Assembly: GCA_041675205.1 (NCBI GenBank)
Contig: JBAYUF010000005.1
Coordinates: 6,159-70,158, forward strand
DNA length: 64,000 nucleotides
Direction of reading: 5' to 3'
Origin: Patescibacteria group bacterium
GTDB taxonomy: Bacteria; Patescibacteriota; Patescibacteriia; GWA2-46-9
The translations under genes were made by a program, and so were the position numbers. Position 1 is the stretch's first letter. Each line of letters starts with the position of its first letter. A model generated the notes under the pieces. That model worked only from the letters and a program-made list of their open reading frames with translations, was not told the DNA's origin and ran no database searches. This document shows positions 4,445 through 26,334 of this stretch, one piece after another.

Positions 4445-4464
4445 TTTCTTGTATACTCAGGTCT

Positions 4465-9991: not shown

Positions 9992-10078
9992 GGGTGGTTA
10001 CCGAAGTAGTCAAACGGACCTGACTGTAAATCAGGTGGCCCTGTGCCTTCGAAGGTGCAAATCCTTCACCACCCACCA
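9992..10078 (+). tRNA. tRNA-Tyr (anticodon GUA), long variable arm, CCA encoded
   Basis: Acceptor GGGTGGT/ACCACCC, anticodon loop CTGTAAA, extended variable arm, T-loop TTCGAAG. Confidence 0.8.
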
Positions 10079-10214
10079 GCCTTCGCTCAAGCTTCGGCTG
10101 GCGTGCCAGCCATAGTTTCAACGACGGTTGGCGGCCAGACGATATAGTAAAGCGGCTGTTCGCCGTAGTTTTAACGAAGGAGAACAAATTGTCAGTTGCC
10201 ATAAGTAAATATAC

Positions 10215-10290
10215 GCCGCCTTAGCTCAGCTGGTAGAGCAACACTTTTGTAAAGTGAAGGTCCCCGGTTCGAGTCCGGGAGGCGGCTCCA
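10215..10290 (+). tRNA. tRNA-Thr (anticodon UGU), CCA encoded
   Basis: Acceptor GCCGCCT/AGGCGGC, anticodon loop TTTGTAA, T-arm CCCGGTTCGAGTCCGGG. Confidence 0.8.
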
Positions 10291-10389
10291 ATAGCGTACA
10301 TTTTGATTTATCAAAATGTTTGCAACGTCAGTAGTCCCGCCAGCGGGCGGGGCTCCAGTAGTGTATAAAACAGGATTAACTACTAAAAA

Positions 10390-11280: not shown

Positions 11281-11344
11281 TTGACAGTTACCCCATTTTC
11301 TATCACACTGTGTTGACTTACTAGTATCAAAACAATAGAACGAT

Positions 11345-11500: not shown

Positions 11501-11620
11501 CTAGTCGTGGATGGCTTATGGCAAGTAGCTGTAAGTAGCATTCATTCCGGGAAAGAATTAAACTATCAGGGTGTTATGACAATCTAGCGTTGCCATTTGC
11601 CAATGGCCTTTGCTAACTAC

Positions 11621-11694
11621 GGGGGCGTAGTGAAGTGGCATCATGCGGGTCTCCAAAACCTAAGTCGTAGGTTCGATTCCTACCGCCCCTGCCA
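11621..11694 (+). tRNA. tRNA-Trp (anticodon CCA), CCA encoded
   Basis: Acceptor GGGGGCG/CGCCCCT, D-stem GTGA/TCAT, anticodon stem CGGGT/ACCTA with loop CTCCAAA, T-arm GTAGGTTCGATTCCTAC, discriminator G. Confidence 0.75.
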
Positions 11695-11695
11695 G

Positions 11696-11735
11696 AAAAA
11701 TCCGTCACCATTTGGTGTACGGATTTTTCTGTTAT
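11696..11735 (+). terminator. intrinsic terminator hairpin (AAAAATCCGT...ACGGATTTTT), A- and T-flanked
   Basis: Perfect 10-bp stem flanked by an A-run and a T-run. A second, near-identical copy lies at 14652-14690. Confidence 0.7.
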
Positions 11736-11860
11736 TGGAAGGCGGAGTCGAACCTGGGGAAGGGGTCGGGGAACGGGAGTTCCCCGTGGCGGAATTATTC
11801 AAACCGAGGGGTTTGAAAGAGTCGCGGAGCGACGATGGTTCTAGCGAAGCGGATTCTACC

Positions 11861-11882
11861 GCCCCTGCCAGTTTGAGCTAGC
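11861..11882 (+). repeat. direct repeat of the tRNA-Trp 3' end (GATTCTACCGCCCCTGCCAG), att-like
   Basis: Matches 20/21 nt of tRNA-Trp positions 11674-11695. A further partial copy (CATCTACCGCCCTTGCCA) lies at 16262-16280. Confidence 0.7.
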
Positions 11883-11996
11883 ACAAGAAGCATCGTTTCA
11901 AGAGAGTACACGTTAGGATCAATACCCAGGCGAAAGCCTGGGTATTGGCGTATTAGGGCGAAAGAATTGAATTTGCATATATGATATTATGTCCTT

Positions 11997-12755
11997 ATGC
12001 GCGATGATGAACAGCCGGTATGTCCCAACTGTGGTTGGCCACTCCACATAGGCCAGCATGGGCCCCATCCTGAAGATGCTCCGAGAGAACCAACTCATCC
12101 ATTGCCGGAGGATTTGGCTCATCGGTTTGTGAACGGCACTATTTTTAATGATGCTGAAGTAGTAGCTGAAGGAGAACATGGTGATATCTATCGAGGCTTT
12201 ATTCGGGAGGAGCCGAATATTGGTATTCAAGCGGCGAAACTTCGGATAGATTTTCAGAAATCTAGTTCTTCAAATGCTGACACTCCAAAACAGGTACGCT
12301 TTGAATACGTACAGCCGGATAAAGTTGATTCAGAAAGTGATGTATTAGTGGCAGAAATGCATATCGCTCCATGGGGTAAAAATAAATTTGTTTTACAGCA
12401 CCGTTACGTTCAACCTGAGTTTCAAGGTAAACTTGGTCTTGGGACTAAACTTTTGCAGCAGGTAGAAAGTTGGTTAGCGCAAGTGGCGAGTGAAAAGAAA
12501 GAGGATGTGATTCTCGAAGTAGATACAGGCCAGAAGGGAGTGATTTCTTGGGTCGAGAAAAATGGTTTTTCTGTTGATCCTGATCAAGTCAAAGAATTGC
12601 AGGAGGTTGTGGATCATCCTGACCGATATGCGCTCGAAGACGTTCCTGATGTTGACGGATTGACTAAACCCGAATTCATTTTTAGAAATGATACCCCGGG
12701 CAGAACCGTTATTGACGCAGTTCGTTTTACTTTTAGTAAGAAGATTTCTGGTTGA
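11997..12755 (+). CDS. GNAT-family acetyltransferase with N-terminal CxxC zinc-ribbon-like motif
   Basis: CPNCGWPLH N-terminus; GNAT motif A-like FQGKLGLGTKLLQQVE. Confidence 0.5.
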   Translation: MRDDEQPVCPNCGWPLHIGQHGPHPEDAPREPTHPLPEDLAHRFVNGTIFNDAEVVAEGEHGDIYRGFIREEPNIGIQAAKLRIDFQKSSSSNADTPKQVRFEYVQPDKVDSESDVLVAEMHIAPWGKNKFVLQHRYVQPEFQGKLGLGTKLLQQVESWLAQVASEKKEDVILEVDTGQKGVISWVEKNGFSVDPDQVKELQEVVDHPDRYALEDVPDVDGLTKPEFIFRNDTPGRTVIDAVRFTFSKKISG

Positions 12756-12765
12756 ACAGAGTCCG

Positions 12766-12856
12766 CTCGAGGTGCATTGTTTTGATCATTGAAACAAGGC
12801 CCCAAAAGCCTTACTGGTGTTGACCGATTGAGGTTCGATCTCGAGGTGGCCTGCCA
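12766..12856 (+). repeat. structured intergenic repeat, family A, copy 1 (CTCGAGGTG...GGTTCGATCTCGAGGTGGCCTGCCA)
   Basis: Aligned by eye with four other copies. Conserved ends and a central AAGGC/GCCTT hairpin; the 5' hairpin varies in sequence but keeps its structure. Confidence 0.75.
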
Positions 12857-13032
12857 AAAGAGTTCTGTCTGTGAAAGGCCTTTTTAATACAGTAATCATT
12901 GACAAGGGATGCCTTTTTCCATACAGTGCTGCTCGTCGTGGATGTAGAAGATTCGTAAGTTTCAATTCACAACTCAGGGCTTGGTCGGCTCTGACCCACA
13001 GAGAAGCCGAAGAAATTCGGCAAGGAGGAACC

Positions 13033-13614
13033 ATGACCGCAATCCGAAGAGTAGTTGATATGCTGGGGCTCAATTGCTTGCCGTTACTCGTCTCGTTCCG
13101 CAAGGCACATGACGATCGACGGCAGGGAGGTGCTCGCAAGCCGCGTCGCATCGCGCCTCGTGTGCTCATCCGCTGCGGATGCTGCAAGCAACGCGTCGAG
13201 GTGTGTGTTGATGAGCATCCGACGGGAGATCCTCATGTTGACATGCTCGAAATCAACGGCGTCTATGGCAGCATCGACCAGTGGCGACAGGTGCTGCTGC
13301 CACTCCTCGGTGTACCGATGCCGGACGCTGAGCGTCGCGAAGCTCGTCTCGCGCTCGTTCGCCGTCGTATGGTGAACGACGGCAGGATGAGGGAGGCGGG
13401 AGACTGCAGATCGTGTGGCGATCCGGCGGAAGAGCCTGAAGGCGAAGACGTTCCCGCCGGTCTCTGTTCGGAGTGCCAGGATATGCAGAAGAAGGGCTGG
13501 CTCAGCAACACGGAGCCCTCGCGACCACTGGTGCCACGCGCATCGGATCGGAGAGAGCCTCTTACCCGAAGTGGCCCGGCGTATTCGCTTTACGATCCAG
13601 CGCGTCAGGGCTGA
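13033..13614 (+). CDS. Cys-rich hypothetical protein in a high-GC cassette
   Basis: Roughly 62% GC against about 40% in neighbours. Strong SD (AAGGAGGAAccATG). Multiple CxxC pairs (CGCCKQ, CRSCG, CSECQ). The track ORF extends upstream to 12871. Confidence 0.5.
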   Translation: MTAIRRVVDMLGLNCLPLLVSFRKAHDDRRQGGARKPRRIAPRVLIRCGCCKQRVEVCVDEHPTGDPHVDMLEINGVYGSIDQWRQVLLPLLGVPMPDAERREARLALVRRRMVNDGRMREAGDCRSCGDPAEEPEGEDVPAGLCSECQDMQKKGWLSNTEPSRPLVPRASDRREPLTRSGPAYSLYDPARQG

Positions 13615-13626
13615 TCGAATGTGCGT

Positions 13627-13680
13627 GGGGCGGGTTCGGTTGGTTGCAACAAGCTTCCGACCGACCCGCCCTTCGTCCTT
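13627..13680 (+). repeat. GC-rich imperfect palindrome, family B copy 1 (GGGGCGGGTTCGGTTGG-TTGCAACAAGCTT-CCGACCGACCCGCCC)
   Basis: Long imperfect inverted repeat with a conserved loop. A second copy at 24810-24866 follows the other high-GC cassette. Confidence 0.65.
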
Positions 13681-13711
13681 TTCAAACATTTTTTTATTTG
13701 AAGTTACTGAG

Positions 13712-13803
13712 CTCGAGGTGCGGCGTTTCGTTCATCTAAAATAGACCCCAAAAGCCTTACTGGTGTTGACCGATTGGGGGTTCGGTCTCGAGGCGGCCTG
13801 CCA
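13712..13803 (+). repeat. structured intergenic repeat family A, copy 2
   Basis: Same ends (CTCGAGGTGC ... CTCGAGGCGGCCTGCCA); hairpin GACCG...CGGTC fully paired in this copy. Confidence 0.75.
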
Positions 13804-13848
13804 AAAGAGTTCTGCCCGAGGAGGGCGGGACTTTTTTGTTTTTATTTT
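13804..13848 (+). terminator. intrinsic terminator (AAAAGAGTTCTGCCCG-gagga-GGGCGGGACTTTTTT)
   Basis: GC-rich stem with G-U pairs, A-run upstream and T-run downstream. Related copies at 12857-12885 and 16281-16320. Confidence 0.65.
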
Positions 13849-13910
13849 ATTCAGATTCAATTTCTCTGTCTGATACCAGGTCTTTCGGCGAGATATGACA
13901 GTATCAGAAT

Positions 13911-14486
13911 CTATATAAAATCGGTTTTTTGAAAATGCTGCCAGTCTTTTTGTTGCCATGTTCCGCCCCAGTCCCATCCATATTTCTTAAAAAGCTTAAC
14001 CACATGGCCGTCCGCTACTATTGCTCCTGTCGCACCGGGGTCATATGTCGCCCCTGGAGGAAAGACTGTTCCATCAATCGCGACGTAAGGGTTTGTTGCC
14101 GGGTTGATATCTATAGCAAGGCCGTATGAGTGATTAGACGGCTTATTTGTGCCGTAGATCAAGCGGTAGTTAAATGCTGAAGTGTTATTCGCAGCCATGC
14201 TGTTCTCGTCAATCCAGTTGTAGGCGACAATCGGAAGCATTTTTTCAATTGGGAAGCGTATCTCATAAAGTTGCTTGAAAATCTCCAGTACTTCTTGTTG
14301 CACCTTTTTATTTATAACTAGTTGTCCTGTATGTGTTCTTTTGTCAAAAGAAATGTAGTCGATAGTCAAAAGAGCTTGGCTATGACGAACTTCGTCGGGC
14401 ATTTGTCCAGCCAAGGATTCTTCTATTGTCATTGCGCTATCAATAATTTTGCTCATGTTTGCTCTCAGCAAGGTTATAACTTGCAT
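13911..14486 (-). CDS. M15-family zinc D-Ala-D-Ala carboxypeptidase/peptidoglycan peptidase (VanY/endolysin-like)
   Basis: SNHSYGLAIDINP and DWQHF zinc-ligand motifs. Start uncertain (Met at 14486 or 14456); the track ORF runs on into repeat A3. Confidence 0.6.
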   Translation of the reverse strand: MQVITLLRANMSKIIDSAMTIEESLAGQMPDEVRHSQALLTIDYISFDKRTHTGQLVINKKVQQEVLEIFKQLYEIRFPIEKMLPIVAYNWIDENSMAANNTSAFNYRLIYGTNKPSNHSYGLAIDINPATNPYVAIDGTVFPPGATYDPGATGAIVADGHVVKLFKKYGWDWGGTWQQKDWQHFQKTDFI

Positions 14487-14560
14487 ATAAATATTATCAT
14501 AAATAGGAACTCGTGATCGGGCCGTGTCACTTTTGTCACTTTTCACTAAATCCGCAGGTG

Positions 14561-14651
14561 CTCGAGGTGTGTCGTTTTGATCATCGGAAAAAGGTTCCAA
14601 ACGCCTTACTGGTGTTGACCGATTCGGGTTCGGTCTCGAGGTGGCCTGCCA
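14561..14651 (+). repeat. structured intergenic repeat family A, copy 3
   Basis: CTCGAGGTGT...GGTCTCGAGGTGGCCTGCCA, followed directly by the AAAAATCCGT terminator copy. Confidence 0.75.
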
Positions 14652-14690
14652 GAAAAATCCGTCACCGTTTTGGTGGACGGATTTTTCTGT
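14652..14690 (+). terminator. intrinsic terminator, second copy of the AAAAATCCGTCACC...ACGGATTTTT hairpin
   Basis: Near-identical to 11696-11735. Confidence 0.65.
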
Positions 14691-14773
14691 TGTTGGGTGA
14701 AAGGAATCGAACTTGAGAAGGGGGTCGTAACTGCAAGAGGAGAAGAAAAATTAGATTATGATAGAATAAGGTT

Positions 14774-15844
14774 ATGAAAATTGCAGATATCAATAAGTAT
14801 AGTTGGATAAAAAATTGGGGTGGAAACTGGAGTTTCCTGACGTGTTTTTACTTTGCCAATTACTATACAGGTGAAATGTGGAAGCAGATGGGTAAGGGTA
14901 TAAAAAAAGCCGTCATCATTTCGAATAATGGATATGGTTTTTGTTATTTCGATCCTAGTGATCGAGAATTATATGGAAAATACATAGGACTAAAAATAGG
15001 TAAGAATAAAGCGGCAGCTTTGAAATTTAGTAATGAACTAAAAAATCAAGCCGACACCTTGATTGAATATACTCACAAGTTAAGGAAGATGAAGACCGTT
15101 TCCTCAGTAGAGTATTATGATTTTCTGAGAAAATTTCTAGCATATTCTGGCCCGCACATGAGCATTCGGCCTACAGTTGATTATCTGCCAGAAAAACAGG
15201 TGAGACTGGTTCTGCCAATTTTCGAAAAAACTAGATTGTACGTAGAGGATGTTTATTTTGCGACAGAAGTGTTTATGCGTCATTGGGCCGAACAATTATC
15301 TGAACGAATGCGAGTCAATCCAAAATTCATACTCTCTTGCACGCCGTCCGAAATTAAGAATTATTGGCTTCATCAAAAGCTACCACCAACAAAGATTTTA
15401 AAAGCGCGATTTGTATCAAGCGGTATTATTTTTGATCGATTAGAAAACAAGGTTTTTGTTGGCCGCACCGTGGAAAGAATTGAAAAACTTCTTCAAGGCA
15501 GGCCGGACAAAAAAGAAATTAAGGGCCAAACAGCCTACGGAGGATTGGTTAAAGGTAACGCAAGAATCATTTTTAATCCTACGGTTCATAGCGCGCGAGT
15601 TTTTCAGAAGGGCGATATATTAATTACTGGAATGACAAGGCCAGAATTTTTACCTTTGATGCGAAAAGCTGGTGCAGTTGTTACAGATGCTGGAGGTATT
15701 TTAAGTCACGCTGCAATTACAGCCCGTGAAATGAAAATACCGACCGTCATAGGCACTACTGTTGCGACCAAAATTTTCAAAGATGGTGATATGGTTGAAG
15801 TTGATGCCACCCACGGAGTAGTAAGAATACTAAAATCACAGTAG
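14774..15844 (+). CDS. PEP-utilizing-enzyme mobile (phosphohistidine swivel) domain protein with uncharacterized N-terminal domain
   Basis: C-terminal GDILITGMTRPEFLPLMRKAGAVVTDAGGILSHAAITAREMKIPTVIG matches the PEP-utilizer His domain (catalytic His in SHAAI). About 37% GC. Confidence 0.6.
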   Translation: MKIADINKYSWIKNWGGNWSFLTCFYFANYYTGEMWKQMGKGIKKAVIISNNGYGFCYFDPSDRELYGKYIGLKIGKNKAAALKFSNELKNQADTLIEYTHKLRKMKTVSSVEYYDFLRKFLAYSGPHMSIRPTVDYLPEKQVRLVLPIFEKTRLYVEDVYFATEVFMRHWAEQLSERMRVNPKFILSCTPSEIKNYWLHQKLPPTKILKARFVSSGIIFDRLENKVFVGRTVERIEKLLQGRPDKKEIKGQTAYGGLVKGNARIIFNPTVHSARVFQKGDILITGMTRPEFLPLMRKAGAVVTDAGGILSHAAITAREMKIPTVIGTTVATKIFKDGDMVEVDATHGVVRILKSQ

Positions 15845-15935
15845 CTCGAGGTGCATCATTTTTGCCATCAAAATAAGGCCCCAAAAAGCCTCACTGGTGT
15901 TGATTGATTGGGGTTCGATCTCGAGGTGGCCTGCC
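15845..15935 (+). repeat. structured intergenic repeat family A, copy 4
   Basis: Begins immediately after the TAG stop at 15842-15844. Hairpin 3 carries compensatory changes (GATTG/CGATC). Confidence 0.75.
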
Positions 15936-16420
15936 GTAGAAGGAGGAGTGTCCGAATGGCTGTTCGTCTTTTCTGTTATATGAGTTGTCTAGACAGGTGT
16001 GTGTGCCTTCACTATACTACTTACTATATGGATGAATCACTTATCATACAAAAGCTGGTTTCCTTGGATGAAAAGATTAGTGGTATTGCGACTCAAGACA
16101 GCCTGATAAAACTTTCTGATGACATCACGCAGGCACTTGATGACCAGCTTGTTATTTTGCAAAGATTGGATTAAGAGAGGCTTTTCACTATGGAACGAAT
16201 AAAGAGAATTGAAGCGGATGTTGAAGAATTAAAATTACAACTGAAAGTGGCTTAAGAGCTTCGACTTCATCTACCGCCCTTGCCAAAAGAGTTCTGCCCG
16301 TCGGGGCGGGACTCTTTTTACGTGAGAGAATATTGAAAAAGAGGGTATTTTTTATTGTAGAAAGATAGTACAGCGAGAATCAGAGGTATGGTAAACTGAT
16401 TTTGCTGACTAAATGACTCT

Positions 16421-16918
16421 ATGAGAACTAGAAAAGAATTAGAGAGGTATGTTACTTCAGTCGGAAAGGATATTAAGGATTGTAGAATAGCTGTCGGTTC
16501 ACTCATTTTTGACAAGGAAAATAAAGTCATACTACTTGAACGTGGAGATAGTTCACGCGATAGTGCTGGTAAGTTTGAAGGTGTAGGCGGGGGTGTTGAC
16601 GCCGCCGAAGAAAATTTGCACGAAGCGCTACAACGAGAGATACATGAGGAAATCGGTGAAGTTCAGGTTGATATAAAAGAGTTACTCACCGTAATGATTC
16701 TACCAGGCTCGACGGGCGGTACGTGGGTTGTTCCAATTTATTTATGTAGATTAAAAAGCGGGGAGCCAATAGTTATGGAGCCTGATAAGATAGTTAAAAT
16801 ACATCATTTCAAGCTGGGGGACATACCCTACAATAAGCTGAGCGCGTATCAGAAAAGTACGATGGATGCTTATCGTGAGAAGTACGGCCAAGAAGTATTT
16901 GACGTTCTTTCGAGTTGA
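16421..16918 (+). CDS. NUDIX hydrolase
   Basis: Nudix box GGGVDAAEENLHEALQREIHEEIGE. Confidence 0.7.
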   Translation: MRTRKELERYVTSVGKDIKDCRIAVGSLIFDKENKVILLERGDSSRDSAGKFEGVGGGVDAAEENLHEALQREIHEEIGEVQVDIKELLTVMILPGSTGGTWVVPIYLCRLKSGEPIVMEPDKIVKIHHFKLGDIPYNKLSAYQKSTMDAYREKYGQEVFDVLSS

Positions 16919-16939
16919 CTTGCAGAAGGGATTATCTGT

Positions 16940-18424
16940 TTGGACTCACTACGTAAGCGAAATATGAAGTTTGATAATTTTGAAATTTACGAAAGAATTT
17001 ATAGTAGCCATTGGTTTCTGACTTCCTACAATGGAATCGGATTTATTTTTGATTTCCCAAAAATCGGCGGTGGCAATTTTCTAAAGAAAGTCATTTATGT
17101 GATGGAAAATCAGATGTGTCGCTATATATTTAATCATAAGGAGTTTGAGCTGGCTGCCAACTATACTGCCGATAAATTAATCAATAATAACAAATGGAGA
17201 AAAGAAGTTTACGAAAAAATTGATTATTTTACAAAACAGTATTTTGATGCAGGAGAAAATTTAAGAGATTCAAATTTATCTTTGCTCTCTAACAAAGAGC
17301 TAATTAAACGCATTCGACGAATAATTGTTTTTCAGCATTACCATCAAGTCTACAGTGTTTTGGCCAATGGAGTAGTTTTAGATGGCCGCAATCATATGTC
17401 GAATAAAATTCGAGATGAATTACGAAATAATTTAAACTTCCCTCCGAAGTTTGAGAATTATTGGAGCACATTAACTCAAATTACGAGGATGAGTCTTCGG
17501 CAGAAAAAAGATTATGAAATTTCTCTTTTAGCAAAAAAGGTTGGAATACTAACTCAGAAACAAATTGAATCAAAATTAAAAAAGCTGCATAAAGAGTATT
17601 GTTGGCTCGACTATAATAATATGGGACCGGCAACGTCGTTTGATGCGTTTCGACAGCAACTTAAAATGGCAAAGCGGAGCGATAAGGACTTGAATGTACC
17701 GAAGCGTTTGGCAGTTTTGAAGAAAAAACAAAGACAATTGATGTCTACATTGAAATTTAACCGAAGGTCTAGATTTTTGATTGCATTAGCCCAACAGGTG
17801 ATTTGGCAGAAAGGGTATCGAAAGGATGTTCAGTATCATGGATTTTATTGCTATGAGCCCTTGTTGCAAGAGCTCGTAAGAAGAAAAAAAGTTTCTGATT
17901 GGCAAACATTGAGTTTCCTATTCCCTTGGGAACTTGAGGGTTATATAAAATCAAATAAACCGACCACTGCTGAATTGGAACAAAGGCGCAAGCTTTCAGT
18001 CTTTATGGTGACAAGAGCGGGACATTCAATCATGGTAGGAAAAAAAGCAAAGATGACTGTAAAAAAATTTGGATCACTTGAAAATTTTACAAGTGTAACC
18101 GAAGTAAGGGGTCAAGTTGCGTATACAGGATTAGTTCGCGGTAAGGTTAAAATCATTCAAACTCCGTCAGACATGGTCAAAATGAACAAAGGGGATGTTC
18201 TCATGTCCCAGGCAACCAGTCCTGATTTACTGCCCGCAATGAAAAAAGCTGGTGCAATTGTTACGAATACCGGTGGTTTAATTTGCCATGCTGCAATAAC
18301 TTCTCGCGAATTAAAGATTCCTTGTGTAGTTGGCACAGCAAAAGCAACCTTAGTCTTTAAAGACGGAGATTTGGTAGAGGTTGATGCAACTAGCGGAGTC
18401 GTAAAAATAGTAAAATCAGAATAG
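16940..18424 (+). CDS. PEP-utilizing-enzyme mobile-domain protein, paralog 2, with larger uncharacterized N-terminal region
   Basis: C-terminal GDVLMSQATSPDLLPAMKKAGAIVTNTGGLICHAAITSRELKIPCVVG is homologous to the C-terminus of 14774-15844. AT-rich. Confidence 0.6.
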   Translation: MDSLRKRNMKFDNFEIYERIYSSHWFLTSYNGIGFIFDFPKIGGGNFLKKVIYVMENQMCRYIFNHKEFELAANYTADKLINNNKWRKEVYEKIDYFTKQYFDAGENLRDSNLSLLSNKELIKRIRRIIVFQHYHQVYSVLANGVVLDGRNHMSNKIRDELRNNLNFPPKFENYWSTLTQITRMSLRQKKDYEISLLAKKVGILTQKQIESKLKKLHKEYCWLDYNNMGPATSFDAFRQQLKMAKRSDKDLNVPKRLAVLKKKQRQLMSTLKFNRRSRFLIALAQQVIWQKGYRKDVQYHGFYCYEPLLQELVRRKKVSDWQTLSFLFPWELEGYIKSNKPTTAELEQRRKLSVFMVTRAGHSIMVGKKAKMTVKKFGSLENFTSVTEVRGQVAYTGLVRGKVKIIQTPSDMVKMNKGDVLMSQATSPDLLPAMKKAGAIVTNTGGLICHAAITSRELKIPCVVGTAKATLVFKDGDLVEVDATSGVVKIVKSE

Positions 18425-18514
18425 CTCGAGGTGCGTCGTTTTCGTCTTCGAAACAAGGCTCCAAACGCCTTACTGGTGTTGACCGACCGGGGTTCGATCT
18501 CGAGGTGGCCCGCA
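18425..18514 (+). repeat. structured intergenic repeat family A, copy 5
   Basis: Starts right after the TAG stop. Its 3' end is degenerate (GGCCCGCA instead of GGCCTGCCA). A terminator hairpin CTGCC-ttaaac-GGCAG-TTTTTT follows at 18523-18551. Confidence 0.7.
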
Positions 18515-18598
18515 GCAACAAATCTGCCTTAAACGGCAGGTTTTTTATTACTCAAAACGACAGGCATCGTGAAGTTAGAACTGTGATAGAATGTATGT

Positions 18599-18934
18599 AT
18601 GACCTTTTTACAAAAAACTATATTTGTTCTGATTATCCTGCTTATCCCCATAGCCTTTTTGCTAGGAGGTTTTCTTGGCAATTTGAAATATGCAGCACCT
18701 TTGGCACACTGTAATCCTGCCTCCGTGCCATATGAAAACGCTGAAACCCAAGAAGTATCTCTACCGATGAGTACTATGTTCAGAAACTATTATGGACATA
18801 CGTATAATTTTAGTGGTCATATTGTGCCTAAAGGGGTCAGTCTAAAAGATTATTATTCAACATTTAACTCTGGTGGTTTTCATTATCTTAAAACTACCAA
18901 TGGAGAGGTAGTCGCTTGTGGATTTTATAAGTAG
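18599..18934 (+). CDS. small membrane-anchored hypothetical protein
   Basis: Hydrophobic N-terminus. ATG lies 7 nt after an extended -10 element (TGATAGAAT, 18584-18592), implying a leaderless transcript. Confidence 0.45.
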   Translation: MTFLQKTIFVLIILLIPIAFLLGGFLGNLKYAAPLAHCNPASVPYENAETQEVSLPMSTMFRNYYGHTYNFSGHIVPKGVSLKDYYSTFNSGGFHYLKTTNGEVVACGFYK

Positions 18935-19015
18935 CGAGCGGGGACTAATCGCAAATCAGGAACATAAATAAACTCACACTGCCGCTGAATAATGGTTTTG
19001 ACGTCCTCCACGATG

Positions 19016-19099
19016 CCCTGCCATCAGAAACGACCCGTAAACTCGGGTCGTTTCTGGTAGAGGGGAGTGGGACATAGAACTGTGATAGAATATTTAAGT
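19016..19099 (+). promoter_or_regulatory. terminator-promoter junction module (CCCTGCCA / 13-bp hairpin / extended -10 TGATAGAAT)
   Basis: Perfect hairpin CAGAAACGACCCG-taaact-CGGGTCGTTTCTG, then GGACATAGAACTGTGATAGAAT. ATG of the next gene is 9 nt after the -10. Confidence 0.6.
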
Positions 19100-20278
19100 A
19101 TGCAAAAAATTACTACAAGCGAGTACGCGGATTTGACACAGCACGAACTAGAGGCGCTGAAACATGAGTTTAACCTTGCGGATGCACATACTCATCAATC
19201 GCAATCGCTCACCCAGCGGAAGATTATAAGTCGACTACCAAGCCTCTGGTACCAATCGGAAAGAGCCACACAGGTCGAAATGGAGAATAAATTTATTCGT
19301 TCTTTTTTTCAGTATCATCAACAGCCTACGGCATTGAAAACACCTTCATTGTTAGTCTATGCAGCCTCCATTGGGATGGTAATTGTCTCTAACTATTTCA
19401 AGAAAAAACAACTGTCCGTTCAGCTGATAACCCCTTGTTTTGATAATCTTCCTGACCTACTAAGAAATCTTGGAGTACCAATTAAGCCGTTGCGAGAAGA
19501 GTTATTAGAGGACGCTAGTGCTATTTATCAGAATCTAGAGCGACATTGTAAAAGTGACGTTATTTTTCTTGTCTCTCCCAATAATCCGACGGGGTTTGAA
19601 CTTACAGGTAACGTAGGCACTGACTATAAGGCACGATTTAAGGAACTGATTCGCTTTGCCAAGAATCATAATAAAATCCTTGCGTTCGACTTTTGTTTTG
19701 CTTCGTTTATAGTGCAGGATGCAAAAGTACCTACGTTTGATGTCTACAGCCTGCTAGAAAAATCGGGTGTGAGCTATATTGCCATTGAGGACTCTGGGAA
19801 AACGTGGCCGCTGCAAGATGCCAAGGTGGCACTTATTAAAGCGAGCAAGAATCTTTATCCTGAGCTCCACAATATTCATACGGCGTATTTGCTCAACGTT
19901 TCACCATTTATTTTGAATCTTGTAAGCGAGTATTGTGAAGATTCGATAAAAGACAAGGGTTCTAGTATCAAGAACCTGCTTGAACGAAATCGCAAGATTG
20001 TTAAAAAGGAATTAAGCGGAGACCTGCTTGAGTTTATGGAACCTGGCACACTTGTTAGTGTCGCGTGGTTCAAGATTAGAAATTCGAAGATTATGGCAAC
20101 GACCTTGCAGAAGCATCTCTATCGCAAGGCAAGGGTGTACGTATTGCCAGGAACATACTTTTTTTGGGATAAGCCGACCAGGGGAGAAAGGTATATACGA
20201 ATTGCCTTAGCGCGTGACACGATTATGTTCAAAAAAGCAATCGCAAAAGTTAAGAAGGCTCTCTATGCATACAGGTAA
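19100..20278 (+). CDS. PLP-dependent aminotransferase (class I/II fold)
   Basis: SPNNPTG motif and a candidate PLP-lysine in EDSGKTW. Start moved to the ATG at 19100 because the track start at 19067 lies inside the promoter element. Confidence 0.6.
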   Translation: MQKITTSEYADLTQHELEALKHEFNLADAHTHQSQSLTQRKIISRLPSLWYQSERATQVEMENKFIRSFFQYHQQPTALKTPSLLVYAASIGMVIVSNYFKKKQLSVQLITPCFDNLPDLLRNLGVPIKPLREELLEDASAIYQNLERHCKSDVIFLVSPNNPTGFELTGNVGTDYKARFKELIRFAKNHNKILAFDFCFASFIVQDAKVPTFDVYSLLEKSGVSYIAIEDSGKTWPLQDAKVALIKASKNLYPELHNIHTAYLLNVSPFILNLVSEYCEDSIKDKGSSIKNLLERNRKIVKKELSGDLLEFMEPGTLVSVAWFKIRNSKIMATTLQKHLYRKARVYVLPGTYFFWDKPTRGERYIRIALARDTIMFKKAIAKVKKALYAYR

Positions 20279-21023
20279 AGAACTCGCGATTCCTTTAGTA
20301 TCCCCTATGCTTGACGGGGCGATAGATAAAGAGTCCATCAGACGCCTTGTGTCATTCTGCGAACCGTATGTGGATATATATGTTCCATGTCTTTCTTCGG
20401 GTGAAGGTGAGAAACTTAGTTCGAGTCAGTGGTCAGAAGTGGTTAGTGCAGTGAGAAGCGAAACAGACAAACCCGTCTATTGTGGGATTTTGAAAGAGGG
20501 AAAAGAAGAGGTACAACAGTATTTGGTTTTGGCGGCCAAGTATGGGTGTGAGGGCGTTGTTATTAAGGTGGAGATGCTTCATCCAAACAATGGTTTGGAT
20601 TTTTCTGGCCTGAAGCTCATTCTTTATAATCAAGAGGGGTCTAAAGCAACGGCGGCTGAATTACTACAACTATCAAGGCATCCTCAAGTAGTCGCAATTA
20701 AAGACAGTTCTGAGAATGTAAGTTTATTCAACGAGCTCTCGGAGTCTTTAGCTCGGGAGGGGAGTGCGGTGAAATTATATCAAGGAATGGAAACCACGAT
20801 TCTTCAAACGCCTGACGCCGATGGGATGCTCATTTCATTGGCTAATGTAGAGCCGAGCTTTTGTAGAAAACTGCTATCGGAGCAAGGTGGAAAGGCTGCA
20901 CAAGAGCTCGATGGCTACATTGAGCGCTATAATCTAAAAGACGGTCAGTGGTATAAGTCCTTAAAAGAAGCCCTGTATAGTATGAAAGTCATTAACTCTC
21001 CGCAACTTGTTGGCCAGGAGTAA
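20264..21023 (+). CDS. DapA/N-acetylneuraminate-lyase family class I aldolase-like protein
   Basis: AIPLVSPMLDG, SSGEGEKLS and VAIKDSS (Schiff-base Lys context). Overlaps the aminotransferase stop, suggesting an operon. Confidence 0.5.
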
Positions 21024-21024
21024 T

Positions 21025-21510
21025 ATGAAAAATATTTACGTAGATTCAGGCGTATTTTTGGCGATGCATAGCATTGATGAAAAAATCCGTGTTACGTGCA
21101 AGAACTTTTTTGTTGCCAATTTTTCAAAGCAGTTGTTCATGTTGCTGGAAGATGTTGGGCAGTGTGATGCCGTGATTTGGAAGGAAGAAAGAGAATTGCA
21201 GGATGCTTATTATCCATTCATGGACAACTTGCATACGTTGATGAAAATCGAGCGAGTTCCTTATAATAAGGGCGCCTTAGAGAATATTGATGAGCTACGG
21301 ATAATTGATAGTAGTTTCTCTATCAGCGACCTTCTGACCTTGTCTCATGTTAAAGCGAGTGGTGCAGTACTGTATACACTTGGGGTATCTCGTTTGAAAA
21401 TTGATAGCATATGTAAAGCCTTGCCTGAACAGGAGGCGAGTGAACTTAGTTTCGAGCAGCAGCTTGAGCGACTATATCAAGAGTCTTTAAAACTAAGAGT
21501 GGGTCAGTAG
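21025..21510 (+). CDS. hypothetical protein
   Basis: ORF continuing the operon with no recognizable motifs. Start ambiguous (21007 or 21025). Confidence 0.4.
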   Translation: MKNIYVDSGVFLAMHSIDEKIRVTCKNFFVANFSKQLFMLLEDVGQCDAVIWKEERELQDAYYPFMDNLHTLMKIERVPYNKGALENIDELRIIDSSFSISDLLTLSHVKASGAVLYTLGVSRLKIDSICKALPEQEASELSFEQQLERLYQESLKLRVGQ

Positions 21511-21613
21511 CTCCGTGTATACATATCAGGACGGTAACTAGATAAAGCAAAGTTCTGCAGTTGAAGTTCTAGTTTGATAGCTACCCAATTCTAGGTTCAA
21601 ACTTGTGTACTAG

Positions 21614-21692
21614 CCCTGCCATCAGAAATGACCTATAAACTCGGGTCGTTTTTGATAGAGCGAAACAGGACATGGAACTGTGATAATATAAC
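21614..21692 (+). promoter_or_regulatory. terminator-promoter junction module, copy 2 (degenerate hairpin; extended -10 TGATAATAT)
   Basis: GCCCTGCCATCAGAAATGACC...GGACATGGAACTGTGATAATAT. ATG at 21696 is about 7 nt after the -10. Confidence 0.55.
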
Positions 21693-22373
21693 TTGATGAA
21701 AGACAAAGTCATTGTTATTACGGGTGGAAGCAAAGGCCTCGGCAAGGGTCTCGCTAATATTTTGGCAAATAACAGTAATAGAGTAGTCATTTGCGCTCGA
21801 CATGAAGTTGAATTAGATAAGACTGCGAAAGAGATTGGCGCAATCCCTTTTCTTGCGGATGTGGCAAAAGAAGAGGATGTAGAATTGCTTGCCGCCTATG
21901 CTGTAAAAGAATTTGGATGCATTGATTTATGGATAAACAATGCCGGCATTTGGTTGCCCCATGCATCGATTGAAGACACCGATCTAAAAAAAGTGCAAGA
22001 GATGTTTTTGGTTAATGTGTTTGGTACGATGAATGGCTCAAAGATTGCGCTTACGCAAATGAGGAAACAGGGTCATGGAACGGTCGTTAACATTATTTCA
22101 ACAAGCGGATTAATTGCTCGGCCTCAGTCGTCAGGATATGCGGCAAGTAAGTGGGCAGTTCGTGGATTTACTGATTCAATTCGTGAAGAAGTTAAGGGCA
22201 CGGATATCCATGTTCTGAGTGTGTACCCCGGGGGCATGCAAACAGATCTATTTGGCGAACAGAAACCGGAAGAGATGAATAAGTATATGACGTTCGAATC
22301 AGTGGCAGAGAAAATTATTGAAAATTTAGATGCCCTGGAACCATTGACGGAACTAATCATCAAGCGCACGTAA
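21693..22373 (+). CDS. SDR-family short-chain dehydrogenase/reductase
   Basis: TGGSKGLGKG cofactor motif, NNAG, and catalytic YAASK. Confidence 0.75.
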   Translation: MMKDKVIVITGGSKGLGKGLANILANNSNRVVICARHEVELDKTAKEIGAIPFLADVAKEEDVELLAAYAVKEFGCIDLWINNAGIWLPHASIEDTDLKKVQEMFLVNVFGTMNGSKIALTQMRKQGHGTVVNIISTSGLIARPQSSGYAASKWAVRGFTDSIREEVKGTDIHVLSVYPGGMQTDLFGEQKPEEMNKYMTFESVAEKIIENLDALEPLTELIIKRT

Positions 22374-22396
22374 GTTCTGTTCGTTTTTGATAGAAG

Positions 22397-23347
22397 GTGA
22401 CGATGATTCTAGTCCCGCTGTGCGGGACGGATTCAACTATTTCCGAGCCGCTCCTTGTTACGATACGAGACATAGTTGAGTACCTCAAAATCCTATTTAT
22501 GCGATACGATTACAAAATTAGCCGCGCTGTTTCATTCGCCATTGAAACGCACGAAATTAACCAAAAACAAAAGCGGAAGGGAAAAGATATTGCCTACATC
22601 ACGCATCCTCTCACTGTTGGGCTTATATTGTCGCGCTGCGGTGCTAGTGACGAGGTCGTAGTGGCGGGCATACTGCATGATACTGTTGAGGATAGCGTTG
22701 ACGATCACAAAGTAACTATCGCGATGCTTCAAGAACGTTTTGGTAAGAAAGTTGCTGAACTCGTTACTAGTGTCACCGAAACAAACCGAGCGCTGCCATG
22801 GAGTGAGCGCAAGCGTGAAGCACTCGAACATGTTGCATCATTTTCACATGAGGCGTTGCTGGTGAAATCCGCCGATGTCATTAGTAATGCAACCGAAATC
22901 ATAGATGACCACAAGCATGATGGCGACTCAGTGTTTGCTCGTTTTAATGCGCCAAAGATTGATGTTCTTCAGAACTACTTATGGGTAATTACGGCCATTA
23001 TTAAATGTTGGCCAGACAGCCCACTTGCAGAAGACTTGCGTTCCGTTGCTAATGGACTACAGGATATGGCTGCGCTTCATTTCATGCAGAACCATCGAGC
23101 TATTGTTATTGAGTATCGGGATTACAGTGAAGACATGCCTATTCAGTGCCCGGTGTGTGATTGGAGTGGTACGCCCAAGGAAAGTGGACTCCTCAATACT
23201 GACAGCCAGGCAGCGCTTGATGTCTCCTGCCGTAATTGCGACAAGATTCTGCTCGTCGTAGAGTATGCCTCTGGCAATGAGGTGGGTAACGAAAGTGAGA
23301 TTGCATTTATTCCCAAGATGAAAAAGAAAATGGACGAAAGTAGCTAG
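22397..23347 (+). CDS. HD-domain phosphohydrolase (RelA/SpoT-type ppGpp-hydrolase-like) with C-terminal CxxC...CxxC zinc ribbon
   Basis: AVSFAIETHE...GKDIAYITHPLTVGLIL...GILHDTVED (HD motif); CPVCDW...CRNCDK at the C-terminus. True start may be the Met at 22499. Confidence 0.55.
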   Translation: MTMILVPLCGTDSTISEPLLVTIRDIVEYLKILFMRYDYKISRAVSFAIETHEINQKQKRKGKDIAYITHPLTVGLILSRCGASDEVVVAGILHDTVEDSVDDHKVTIAMLQERFGKKVAELVTSVTETNRALPWSERKREALEHVASFSHEALLVKSADVISNATEIIDDHKHDGDSVFARFNAPKIDVLQNYLWVITAIIKCWPDSPLAEDLRSVANGLQDMAALHFMQNHRAIVIEYRDYSEDMPIQCPVCDWSGTPKESGLLNTDSQAALDVSCRNCDKILLVVEYASGNEVGNESEIAFIPKMKKKMDESS

Positions 23348-23611
23348 GCATTGCTTCGAAGCACTTTCTTTTTAAGCTAGAGTGATCCTGGATCAAGCAC
23401 CGCAAGCGTTTTCAAGTCTGGTACATAAAATCCGTTTGACTGCCGTATACTGGTTCTAACGTCCTCTATGATGCCCGCCAGTTTGAGCTAGCACGAGAAG
23501 CATCGTTTCAAGATAGTTAGAAATCAACACCCAGGTGAAAGCCTGGGTGTTGATGTTTGATAGGTAAACCAGAAAAGTTTGGAACTGTGATAAAATTACA
23601 TAATGCAAGAT

Positions 23612-24101
23612 GTTAACTTTTCAGTTGATGGAAAAAAGCTCACAGGTAACACTTTTTTCCAGAAACACTTCAGTTAAAAAATCCAGCCGCTTTGATTATT
23701 CATGGATGGGAGAGTAAACAGGACAGAGGTTTTTTATTAGCGGAGGCGCTCGCTGAACAACGTGACTAAAAAGTTTTATCACAAATTGCCAGGAGGGGGA
23801 GTTGAGGAAGGTGAAGACATTGAGACTGGATTGCGTCGAGAATCGTTTGAGGAGATTGGTTGTACAATTGAGTATATTCATGAGCTAGGAACTATTGAAG
23901 AATATCGAAATGAATGCAGAAACGGGGGAGGTCGGCATCAAATCTCACATTGCTTCATCGCCGAAATTGCTGGAGATACTTGAAGTTGCTATCGAGAAAT
24001 TAGAAAGCGAGGCAAGTGTTGAAGATTATGAGGGCAAATTTATAAGATTAAGAGATCTTTTGTTTCTTAAAGAAGCAAGTTCGTGGATGCAGATCAATTG
24101 A
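23612..24101 (+). pseudogene. NUDIX hydrolase pseudogene (at least two frameshifts)
   Basis: The Nudix box LPGGGVEEGEDIETGLRRESFEEIG lies in one frame while the N-terminal and C-terminal segments continue in other frames (23612-23677, 23762-23983, 23895-24101). Confidence 0.55.
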
Positions 24102-24259
24102 AGCCCCTTCTTGATAGCTGTTGTTCTGCTGTGAGGTGGTTTTTAATAATAAAGTAATCATTGACAAAGAAAGTTTTTTTCAATAAGGTGTTGCTCGTCG
24201 TGGATGCGGAACGATTTTTAAAAACGAAGAAAGATTCAAATATTCGGTACGGAGGAATC

Positions 24260-24778
24260 ATGAACGAGGTGAAAACATTGGCACAGGTCTTGGCAAGGAT
24301 GACCTCAGAATTCATGCAAAGCGAAGCATTCAGGTTTCTCGCGAACCGGAGGCAGTATACGAATGAAGTGGTGCGTCGCGTCGATACATCCATCCCTGAG
24401 CTGAGGGTATTCGTTCAGGCAGTTATCTGTGTCTTCGGTAACAGAGGTGCTAGTGGGCTCACATTTGCCCTGGGTATCATCTTCCACTTGGTGGACCAGG
24501 ATACACCAAGTCGGGTGTGGCTTGAAAAGCACTTGCTGTTGCTTGATGACGAGATTGTCGAGAGGGCCGTCGACACGTTGCAGGAGGAGCCCCGCTGTCT
24601 CGTTGCTGCGGGTGAGCGTTCATCCGCAGGTGCTTATGAGGTTGCGGGCACTATAGAAGGCATGGGTACTTTCGAGGGTGAAGATGCAGCCAGGGGCGCA
24701 TTTGCAATCTTCGGATTACTGCAACAACTCGACAATGCACCCGCTGATGACGATCCTGGCTCTGCGTACTTGATTTAA
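24260..24778 (+). CDS. hypothetical protein in the second high-GC cassette
   Basis: About 60% GC. Strong SD (ACGGAGGAATCATG). Upstream promoter and leader are homologous to those of the 13033 cassette. Confidence 0.5.
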   Translation: MNEVKTLAQVLARMTSEFMQSEAFRFLANRRQYTNEVVRRVDTSIPELRVFVQAVICVFGNRGASGLTFALGIIFHLVDQDTPSRVWLEKHLLLLDDEIVERAVDTLQEEPRCLVAAGERSSAGAYEVAGTIEGMGTFEGEDAARGAFAIFGLLQQLDNAPADDDPGSAYLI

Positions 24779-24809
24779 TCACCACGGGTAACACTCAGTG
24801 GTGCTGACA

Positions 24810-24866
24810 GGGGGGCGGTCTGATTGGTTGCAACAAGCTTCCAAACGGCCCGCCCCTCGTCCTGTC
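24810..24866 (+). repeat. GC-rich imperfect palindrome, family B copy 2
   Basis: GGGGGCGGTCTGATTGG-TTGCAACAAGCTT-CCAAACGGCCCGCCCC, with the same loop as 13627-13680. Confidence 0.65.
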
Positions 24867-24908
24867 CAAATATTTAATTTTCATTTGAAACCATAGTTCT
24901 CAAGGTGG

Positions 24909-24991
24909 CCTGCCATCAGACATGACCCGTGAACTCGGGTCTTTTTTGGTAGAGAGGAGTAGCACATGGAACTGTGATAGTATTCGTACGT
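24909..24991 (+). promoter_or_regulatory. terminator-promoter junction module, copy 3 (extended -10 TGATAGTAT)
   Basis: GGCCTGCCATCAGACATGACCCGTGAACTCGGGTC...CACATGGAACTGTGATAGTAT. ATG at 24992 lies 8 nt after the -10. Confidence 0.55.
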
Positions 24992-25615
24992 ATGGAACTA
25001 TTTCTAACATCGAGCGTTCACGCTGTGGCGCAAGACATTGCCAAGAAGATTAACCTTGTTAAGGCAAACAAGCTAGTGTTTATCACTACTGCCGCTGAGC
25101 CGAAAGAGGAAGGGGATTTAACCTGGCTTTATAACGATAGACAGGCGTTGGTCGATGCTGGCTTTAATGTCGTTGATTATACAATTACTAATAAGAACAA
25201 AAGCGAGCTAGAGCGTGACCTTGAGGGTTTCGACTACATCTATCTCTCAGGAGGGAATACCGCTTATCTTTTACAACAATCTCAAAAATCAGGATTTGTT
25301 GCTTTGGTAAAAGAACTCGTTCAGAAGAAAGGTAAAGTCTACATCGGGACTAGTGCAGGCTCAGTCATTGCCGGGCCGAGACTCTCTGATTACTACATTG
25401 ACGAATCAACAGAGTTGGAAGACAAAAAAGGATATGGGTTTGTAAATTTTACAATTGTTCCGCATTGGGGTTCTGGTGATTTTAGAAAAACGTACTTAGG
25501 CGAGAGATTGAAGATTGTGTATAAAGAAGATCAAGTGCCCCTACTTCTTCTTACTGATAATCAATACGTTCACATAAAAGATGAGCAGATGAAGATCATT
25601 GATGTGAAAGAGTAA
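24992..25615 (+). CDS. S51-family peptidase (dipeptidase E/cyanophycinase-like)
   Basis: LSGGNTAYLL and GTSAGSVIAGP motifs. Confidence 0.6.
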   Translation: MELFLTSSVHAVAQDIAKKINLVKANKLVFITTAAEPKEEGDLTWLYNDRQALVDAGFNVVDYTITNKNKSELERDLEGFDYIYLSGGNTAYLLQQSQKSGFVALVKELVQKKGKVYIGTSAGSVIAGPRLSDYYIDESTELEDKKGYGFVNFTIVPHWGSGDFRKTYLGERLKIVYKEDQVPLLLLTDNQYVHIKDEQMKIIDVKE

Positions 25616-25629
25616 ATCGTGAGTTTTTT

Positions 25630-25740
25630 ATGAAGTTGCTAAAAACAATAAGTGATACAGAAAACCCACCCTGGGGGTGGGTGGGTGGGAAAAGGTGAGG
25701 ATATAGAGACCGGGTTGCGCACGAGACAATCTGCTAGAAG
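25630..25740 (+). pseudogene. NUDIX gene remnant carrying a G-quadruplex-type G-run
   Basis: GEDIETGLRTRQ Nudix-box fragment, homologous to 23800-23860, placed out of frame behind GGGGGTGGGTGGGTGGG (25673-25690). Confidence 0.45.
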
Positions 25741-25822
25741 ATAGTGAGTAGCAACCTTGTTGAATAGTAGGACAGCGATTATTCCGTAAGGCTTGATGTA
25801 GGACGGAGCCCCATACCTCGAT

Positions 25823-26128
25823 TCAGGGGCCTAAGGTGAGCAACAACAATTGAAACAGCAAGGGAACACCGAGCAACACGATACCCCAGCCAATACCTCG
25901 CCCGAGTTGGATCCATGGAAAGGGGAGCCTTTTGGCCAGTACACCCGGAAGCAAGATGCCTATTACGATCAGAGGCAACCAGATAATCTCGCTGCGAACA
26001 CTCGACCTGAATGTAGCCTGAAAGAACAAGAAAACGGTAACAGTGAGCAGGAGTAGAGAAGGGCTTACCAGAAAGCCGACTACGTATTGAATCAACGGGT
26101 AACGATATCGGGGTGTCATATGAATCAA
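25823..26128 (-). CDS. small multi-TM hypothetical membrane protein
   Basis: Strongly hydrophobic 101-aa ORF, preferred over the overlapping 169-aa frame. Low confidence. Confidence 0.3.
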   Translation of the reverse strand: MIHMTPRYRYPLIQYVVGFLVSPSLLLLTVTVFLFFQATFRSSVRSEIIWLPLIVIGILLPGVLAKRLPFPWIQLGRGIGWGIVLLGVPLLFQLLLLTLGP

Positions 26129-26334
26129 GTATACGCTTGGTGGACCGGTGACTGTGTGGATAAGTGGTGTCGAGCCGGCCGGAGAGTGAACGTCGGGATC
26201 TTGGCGGTTCCAGCCGTCGACGGGGCGGATTGGCTTCGTTCAGCAATTCTTCCGACTGACCTGCTCCTCGTCCTTCTCTGACCTCCAAAATAGTTCTCGC
26301 TAGGATGAAATTTTAATTATGTTAGAATAAAATC

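Follow-up and report, generated by a model that had tools for sequence, protein, structure and literature searches.

GAAA-capped hairpin repeats that lead two cassettes of a tRNA-Trp-anchored array in Patescibacteria

tRNA-anchored islands, integrons and the array behind tRNA-Trp

The known systems closest to the locus described here are the tycheposon islands of Prochlorococcus and the cis-mobilisable elements that lack an integrase. Tycheposon islands are anchored at tRNA genes; each new integration there shifts the older elements farther inward, and partial tRNAs stay behind (bioRxiv 10.1101/2020.12.28.424599). Integron arrays, with their attI and attC sites and the integrase IntI, provide the second point of reference. 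Among open-access papers and bioRxiv preprints, no description was found of cassette arrays, integrons or tRNA islands of the present type in Patescibacteria.

In the 64-kb window, i.e., the whole stretch of DNA that was analysed, which belongs to a metagenome-assembled genome of an uncultured member of the Patescibacteria, a gene for tRNA-Trp is followed by an array of small cassettes (Table 1), with a G+C content of 0.35-0.45 versus ~0.5 in the flanks, which consist of housekeeping genes (SecY, Adk, Map, RecO, class II aminoacyl-tRNA synthetase, ScpAB and TIM). The last 7 nt of the tRNA gene, CCTGCCA, comprise three acceptor bases, the discriminator G and CCA, and recur, with variants, at the cassette junctions. 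The pattern CCYGCCA has 31 matches in the window against 12.9 expected, and nine of those on the + strand, the tRNA-Trp 3' end included, cluster within 11688-24909, each clustered core being preceded by a sequence that resembles the T-loop and the 3' acceptor strand of tRNA-Trp (for example, GGTTCGATCTCGAGGTGG-CCTGCCA). At least eight + strand junctions have the CC(T/C)GCCA end after a GGTTCG-type T-loop/acceptor-like sequence; these degenerate tRNA-like ends yield no tRNA score in Rfam at E<=1. The units between junctions measure 0.5-2.6 kb and carry one to three genes, nearly all on the + strand. Their cargo is of the accessory type: GNAT, a G+C-rich ORF, an M15 peptidase (- strand), two PEP-utiliser swivel-domain proteins, Nudix, an aminotransferase-DHDPS-DUF6190 trio, SDR with HD, an S51 peptidase, SDR, ASCH and GNAT-ASCH. 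The arrangement is common to three independent assemblies, so that misassembly is unlikely; ENA ERZ27247358 k141_1282698 (71.5 kb) carries the window, Logan contigs from SRR6484325 (L003, L039) show the arrangement at 100% identity, and a JGI assembly (L002) is 99.6% identical apart from a run of N. Neither an excised form nor another cassette order was seen, exact-protein look-ups having returned only identical contigs from the same population.

The array holds decayed genes. A small coiled-coil-like protein is a pseudogene in the window (16027-16255), where TAA replaces a sense codon, and has 102 aa in the related array L024 described below (10001-10309); a homologue in Uhrbacteria (P0127) lies outside any array. 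Decayed fragments of alpha/beta-hydrolase and Nudix genes occupy 23603-24100. The regions 12885-13691 and 24147-24875 (also 26222-26286) are paralogous cassettes with a TTGACA-N17-TACAGT/TAAGGT promoter and a conserved start of the region downstream of it, the leader being ~130 nt in the first; a long G+C-rich hairpin (GGGGCGGGTTCGG...CCGACCCGCCC) closes each of the two longer regions, their coding strand differs between gene callers, and the ORF of 12885-13691 is unusually G+C-rich (55% G+C). On the minus strand, sequences resembling tRNA 3' ends, GGTTCGACTCCGCCTTCCA and AAGTTCGATTCCTTTCACCCA, are located at 11737-11757 and 14693-14713, just past the type A terminators, and may be relics of oppositely oriented tRNA-like sites. 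The GNAT cassette protein has no detected homologues beyond itself. Homologues of the PEP-utiliser cassette protein are abundant in CPR and DPANN genomes, and around the five homologues whose contigs were examined (P0002, P0003, P0004, P0041; L020-L023, L036, L037) there was neither a tRNA array nor a box of the kind described in the next section. Swivel-only phosphohistidine-domain (PEP-utilising) proteins like the two of the window array form long tandem runs of paralogues in other CPR genomes (L020 1-14054, at least eight; L022 5579-13046) and have >2000 relatives in CPR and DPANN genomes.

The likeness to tRNA-anchored islands is extensive. The array has a full tRNA gene at one end, each unit has partial copies of the tRNA 3' end at its boundaries, the older units lying farther inward, its cargo is accessory and partly degenerate, and its content varies between related genomes at the same locus. 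Three of the four island features tested are present (an intact tRNA, partial-tRNA direct repeats and variable content); the fourth, an integrase within the element or next to the tRNA, was seen neither in the 64-kb window, where Pfam scans of the large ORFs detected no Phage_integrase or other recombinase domain, nor in 12.2 kb of L024, where no recombinase was seen. Unlike such islands, the array consists of units of no more than 2.6 kb that have neither an integrase nor a replication module, its cassettes each carry a promoter-like -10 element directly before the ATG and are probably leaderless, and its modular non-coding ends are common to genomes in which orthologous proteins are 35-52% identical.

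With integron arrays, the locus shares co-oriented, small, mostly single-gene cassettes, structured recombination-type sites between them and the reuse of site families with unrelated genes. In contrast to integrons, the window contains neither an intI gene nor an attI site; the core CCTGCCA comes from a tRNA and differs from GTTRRRY (the GTTTGAG that follows it has T at position 4); the sites resemble tRNA 3' ends and not R''-L''/L'-R' palindromes; and the cassettes have their own predicted promoters, recognised in six window cassettes only as matches to the consensus TGnTAnnnT, and not a common Pc. The array is integron-like in its working but failed every integron test run (no intI, a different core, own predicted promoters).

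Table 1. Coordinates of the tRNA-Trp locus, its junctions, modules and predicted promoter elements (positions of the window unless L024 is named).
Feature	Position	Strand	Details
tRNA-Trp (CCA) gene	11621..11694	+	59 bits; ends ...CTACCGCCCCTGCCA
Cassette array	11695..26300	+	~11 small cassettes behind tRNA-Trp; right end not sharply defined
Junction cores	11864, 12850, 13797, 14645, 19017, 21615, 23474, 24909		
Junction cores, mutated	15930, ~16280, 18509		CCTGCCG, CTTGCCA and CCCGCAG, respectively
Junction before copy 1	11848..11870	+	partial tRNA-Trp 3' end (GCGGATTCTACCGCC) and core CCTGCCA 11864-11870
Copy 1 box	11871..11904	+	34 nt, GTTTGAGCTAGCACAAGAAGCATCGTTTCAAGAG
Copy 1 hairpin	11919..11948	+	stem 11920-11931 / 11936-11947, 12 bp; loop GAAA 11932-11935
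Extended -10-like element TGATATTAT	11982..11990	+	6 nt before ATG of GNAT gene (11997-12755), 37 nt past hairpin
GNAT cassette ends	11871; 12856		right-hand start GTTTGAGC; left-hand end ...GGTGGCCTGCCA
Junction before copy 2	23452..23480	+	degenerate tRNA-like end (GGTTCTAACGTCCTCTATGATG) and core CCCGCCA 23474-23480
Copy 2 box	23481..23514	+	34 nt, GTTTGAGCTAGCACGAGAAGCATCGTTTCAAGAT
Copy 2 hairpin	23523..23554	+	stem 23523-23536 / 23541-23554, 14 bp; loop GAAA 23537-23540; closing pair T.G
Extended -10-like element TGATAAAAT	23588..23596	+	6 nt before ATG 23603 of decayed ORF (alpha/beta-hydrolase-like and Nudix fragments)
-10/ATG units, window	11982-11999, 14759-14776, 18584-18601, 21681-21698, 23588-23605, 26320-26337		
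-10/ATG units, L024	7196-7213, 11371-11388		
Type A module	11695, 14652		native tRNA terminator, GAAAAATCCGTCACC...
Type B module	12857, 13804, 16287		AAAGAGTTCTGCCCG...
Type C module	19024, 21622, 24916		TCAGAAACGACCCG...CGGGTCGTTTCTG
18516 type module	18516		core 18509; also in L024 and L035
Type E module	15937 (shortened copy)		also in L024
L1 left-hand elements, window	12765-12856, 13711-13803, 14560-14651, 15845-15936, 18424-18515		~90 nt
L1 left-hand elements, L024	~8225-8279, 11810-11863		

Two copies of a box and a hairpin

The junctions have a regular layout in which a degenerate tRNA-Trp 3' end is followed by CC(T/C)GCCA, a hairpin module, TGnTAnnnT and the ORF. The modules to the right of the core are of five sequence types, and the repeats studied here, ~80 nt long (11871-11948 and 23481-23554), represent type D: a common 34-nt box that abuts the core and, farther 3', a GAAA-capped hairpin of 12-14 bp with no T-run. 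The hairpins of types A, B and C and of the 18516 type start 0-8 nt from the core, are T-rich in the tail or in the 3' arm of the stem, and are detected by the terminator scan. In the window, in L024 and in a third locus, L035, the right-hand modules join freely with different left ends and unrelated genes. One family of left-hand ends, denoted L1, contains an anticodon-arm-like hairpin (AAGGC-CCCAAAA-GCCTT), a T-loop-like box GGTTCGAT and two repeats of CTCGAGGTG; identity to the reference copy is 60-82% among its five copies in the window, its 3' half is kept in a distant genome, and its structure is weakly supported by RNAalifold.

The two repeats are the leading non-coding module, immediately right of the junction, of two different cassettes in the array. 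The initial annotation had recognised both copies and their position right of a junction, but started copy 1 at 11883, which falls inside the box that begins at 11871, and read the junction of copy 2 as CCTGCCAG, where the sequence is CCCGCCAG. Its stem of 11-12 bp closed by GAAA is present, being somewhat longer in copy 2 (14 bp) than in copy 1 (12 bp, or 13 bp if a U.G pair is counted), and the downstream genes are those it had named, a GNAT gene after copy 1 and a decayed ORF with a Nudix-box fragment after copy 2.

A repeat finder listed two pairs: one of 44 nt, covering the box and the core in front of it, at 93% identity, and one of 30 nt, covering the hairpin, at 90%. In the alignment of the two copies, the left flanks are 50% identical, which is the background of the same scoring and the level of unrelated sequence; the core matches at 6/7 positions, the box at 32/34 (94%) and the hairpin at 26/30 (87%), the linker between box and hairpin is 50% identical with a 5-nt indel, and identity falls to 57% in the stretch from hairpin to ATG and to 48% in the downstream ORFs. 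The likeness thus begins at the core, is limited to two islands, box and hairpin, amid unrelated flanks, and is not part of a segmental duplication; the initial annotation had allowed for such a duplication, spanning its flanks and with no copies elsewhere, and the box is moreover present in a second genome.

Among 13 aligned base pairs of the hairpin, one is changed on both sides (U-A to C-G, the single coordinated T-to-C and A-to-G change pointed out from the start, seen in two sequences), two are changed on one side, to or from wobble (C-G to U-G and U-G to U-A), and none is broken. These changes agree with a conserved structure, suggestively only, as two sequences carry no statistical weight. 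Folded as DNA, the hairpins reach -14.2 and -15.5 kcal/mol, with dinucleotide-shuffle z scores of -6.7 and -9.3; the whole 90-95 nt folded as RNA gives z scores of -3.4 for copy 1 and -6.5 for copy 2. Small 5' helices predicted inside the box are unsupported, an A/G difference between the copies breaking one predicted pair. Neither strand of the element has conserved coding potential.

The same comparison bears on the possibility that the repeats are a passive relic of one ancestral cassette front end, with box and hairpin as functionless patches that failed to diverge or were gene-converted. Such a relic would fit the existence of just two full copies, none having come from exact-pattern scans of public collections or from BLAST against phages and plasmids, as well as the decay of genes in the array. 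It accounts poorly, however, for conservation as patchy as 94% and 87% beside ~50%, for three stem substitutions that all keep pairing, and for a box that is nearly identical in a genome with 35-52% identical orthologous proteins, and we regard it as improbable.

A related array in a distant genome

A scan with L1, the commonest left-hand junction element, led to one genome, the Patescibacteria MAG SO_2017_GW1_50, in which the fuller locus is L024. Its synteny is that of the window (S11 peptidase, TIM, TPR, tRNAs, LRV protein, tRNA-Trp, followed by an array up to the end of the contig), and the orthologous proteins are 35% (TIM), 48% (TPR) and 52% (LRV) identical. The cassettes differ from those of the window, the junction families are the same, and the junction modules are 85-90% identical to their window counterparts at the nucleotide level. 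Near-identical junction ends despite proteins of 35-52% identity fit horizontally shared cassette ends. In a third lineage, represented by L035, a tRNA-Trp-like end is joined at the core to a right-hand module that in the window and in L024 follows L1-type ends. Directly upstream of tRNA-Trp in L024, and overlapping its 5' end, there is a 224-aa ORF (4140-4814) with a weak match to HTH_23 that was not called by the gene caller and has no counterpart in the window.

At 7161-7185 of L024, core and box occur together (junction ...GAGCCCCTGCCA-AGTTGAGCTAGCACGAGAAGCATTGCAAGAAACGGTGCTATACTAAATATATG), with 20/21 nt of the search box; here the box adjoins the core, there is no hairpin, and the -10 element and ATG follow directly. 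A weaker box-like sequence, AAGCTAGCACGAGAGG, lies at 11325, with a degenerate core 37 nt in front of it and a -10 element 35 nt behind it. Box and hairpin are therefore separable and do not make up one obligate unit. The two window copies were used to build a covariance model, which was run with filters off against the window and a few loci. It scored these copies at 114 and 106 bits; the L024 boxes, aligned with deletion of the hairpin positions, reached 21 and 19 bits. It found no third copy in the 64-kb window and, beyond the L024 boxes, none in the other loci. Exact-pattern scans with the box gave 0 matches in GTDB representative genomes and, in JGI metagenome contigs, 15 loci (L004-L018), all of them chance 19-nt matches in unrelated coding DNA that could not be extended. 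In IMG/VR, exact-pattern scans with the box and with the L1 junction element gave 0 matches, and blastn of the junction with the element against phages and plasmids gave none. In Rfam 15, only tRNAs reached the gathering threshold over the whole window, and nothing relevant appeared at E<=1 over 11600-27000. The known set accordingly comprises two full copies and two box-only copies. A dispersed palindromic repeat (REP/MITE-like), which requires many copies, was rejected on the two that the covariance model finds in 64 kb, as was a CRISPR-repeat-like reading, given two copies only, 11.6 kb apart and in no array of repeats.

The separability of the two parts is relevant to the view that the hairpin is a single-stranded-DNA recombination structure, comparable to the folded attC of integrons, or a small palindromic insertion element. 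The DNA mini-hairpin d(GCGAAAGC) is unusually stable, and the perfect stem of 12-14 bp with its GAAA loop, the long stems beside the core in all right-hand modules and the presence or absence of the hairpin independently of the box would all suit a structure of this kind. The hairpin, however, is located not at the junction but 48 nt (copy 1) and 42 nt (copy 2) away from it, the core is unlike the attC motif GTTRRRY, the window has no integron integrase, and the copies are two only, in the same relative place; taken together, these observations make a role in single-stranded DNA very improbable.

Predicted promoters and possible roles of the module

In six window cassettes, both type D cassettes included, and in two cassettes of L024, the consensus TGnTAnnnT stands exactly 6 nt upstream of the ATG, and a third L024 cassette has it at 7 nt; these are consensus matches only. 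The cassette ORFs with this -10-N6-ATG layout have no Shine-Dalgarno sequence, which suggests that the cassette mRNAs are leaderless. In copy 1, 37 nt separate the last stem base from the -10 hexamer. In copy 2, the -10 element lies 36 nt past the 14-bp stem and 38 nt past the position that matches the last stem base of copy 1, and downstream of the hairpin comes a promoter module, ...AGTTTGGAACTGTGATAAAAT, that is also found after hairpins of other types. A promoter module (G)ATAGGCATCGTGRAGTTAGAACTGTGRTAKAAT is found at 18545-18592, at ~8310-8350 of L024 and at ~500-545 of L035, i.e., in three Patescibacteria lineages and before unrelated cassette genes. With the predicted -10 element 6 nt before the ATG, box and hairpin are upstream of the predicted start of cassette transcription, and a reading of the element as a 5' UTR or riboswitch was rejected on this layout. 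The box itself was considered as a promoter (TTGAGC-N17-TTTCAA) and rejected on account of a poor -10 and variable spacing.

The initial annotation had proposed several roles for the element. That of an RNA stability or processing element is unlikely because the element stands upstream of the predicted transcription start and because the genes that follow the box are unrelated in all three cases (GNAT; the decayed hydrolase/Nudix ORF; in L024, a 338-aa protein without a Pfam match). Protein binding by the box is conceivable. The terminal structure of an inserted unit comes nearest to the evidence, as both window copies start at CC(T/C)GCCA after a tRNA-Trp-like 3' end and head a cassette. The repeats mark the boundaries of putatively mobile cassettes and are probably not a free-standing RNA gene.

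A different kind of RNA is conceivable upstream of the cassette transcript, namely a small RNA of ~80 nt released from the 3' trailer of the tRNA or tRNA-like sequence by cleavage after CCA, with the conserved, single-stranded 5' box as a seed and the GNRA hairpin protecting the 3' end. The element does begin exactly after ...GCCA, its conservation is concentrated in the box at the 5' end and the hairpin at the 3' end while the linker varies, and the loop-adjacent C-to-U change gives a G.U pair on the + strand only, the strand of the tRNA and the cassettes. Yet copy 1 is preceded by a mere fragment of tRNA, 17-23 nt long, behind a strong bidirectional-type terminator, the L024 copies have no hairpin, and Rfam offers no match, so that a trailer-derived RNA appears distinctly improbable.

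Alternatively, the box could serve as the operator of a DNA-binding protein that regulates the cassette promoters and would bind the near-palindrome GAGCTAGCAC as a dimer, the hairpin being unrelated. The box does contain the palindrome GCTAGC, it is kept across distant genomes whatever the downstream gene, and in L024 the two boxes are separated from the -10 element downstream by 24 and 35 nt and overlap the -35 area. In the window, however, the stretch from box to -10 measures ~95 nt in copy 1 and ~91 nt in copy 2 and includes a stable hairpin, the distance from box to -10 is not fixed, and the box is seen twice in 64 kb, at junctions only. Regulation through the box consequently strikes us as decidedly unlikely.

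The explanation that best covers the locus as a whole, and to which we give somewhat more credence than doubt, is that of a cassette-start module in which recombination occurs at CCTGCCA and the hairpin acts as an insulator or cap. Under this explanation, cassettes would be inserted, and probably shuffled, by site-specific recombination at CCTGCCA, carried out by a recombinase that would be encoded elsewhere in the genome, and the module would most likely travel with the cassettes that recombine there. We infer mobility at the core solely from the comparison of arrays: left and right modules combine freely exactly at this point, and they are kept far better than the housekeeping genes. The box would then be the cassette-side flank of the crossover site and, in the cassette beside the tRNA, would also supply the first bases of the tRNA 3' trailer; given the unrelated sequences right of the core in other cassettes, it is not a universal recombinase arm and is not needed for recombination in general. 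The box-like sequence at 11325 of L024, 37 nt away from a degenerate core, also speaks against the explanation.

As for the hairpin, it may shield the cassette promoter from read-through or form a cap at the 3' end of RNA that runs on from the tRNA or from the preceding cassette. A terminator-like role is suggested by its place, which is that of the terminator hairpins in the other module types. It resembles intrinsic (Rho-independent) terminators and 3' stabilising stem-loops in its G+C-rich perfect stem, its stable tetraloop and its position, equivalent to that of the terminators of types A, B and C, but differs from them in that no T/U tract follows the stem, and a consensus scan misses it. 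Several observations speak against such a role: the tails read GCGTATTAGG and GTTTGATAGG, with no T/U run, and the terminator scan does not list the hairpin; a small terminator-like hairpin with a T-run seems to belong to the HD gene that precedes copy 2, and copy 1 is located behind the terminator of the tRNA itself.

In a broader perspective, the array could reflect integron-like gene capture in Patescibacteria, in which the tRNA-Trp 3' end would stand in for attI, tRNA-mimic sites would separate leaderless, self-promoted cassettes, a recombinase would act in trans, and modules would circulate between distant lineages; we advance this tentatively, as a scenario that is on the unlikely side. 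The hairpin alone is a minor feature, and the cassette-array context is more useful: the hairpin marks boundaries in a modular array of mini-cassettes at tRNA-Trp, in an uncultured phylum with reduced genomes, for which little is known of how genes are exchanged. Should the modules be real parts of a recombination and expression system, they would provide sequence handles for finding such arrays in Patescibacteria MAGs, for delimiting cassettes and for searching for the recombinase, and the acquisition of accessory genes by these bacteria would become directly testable.
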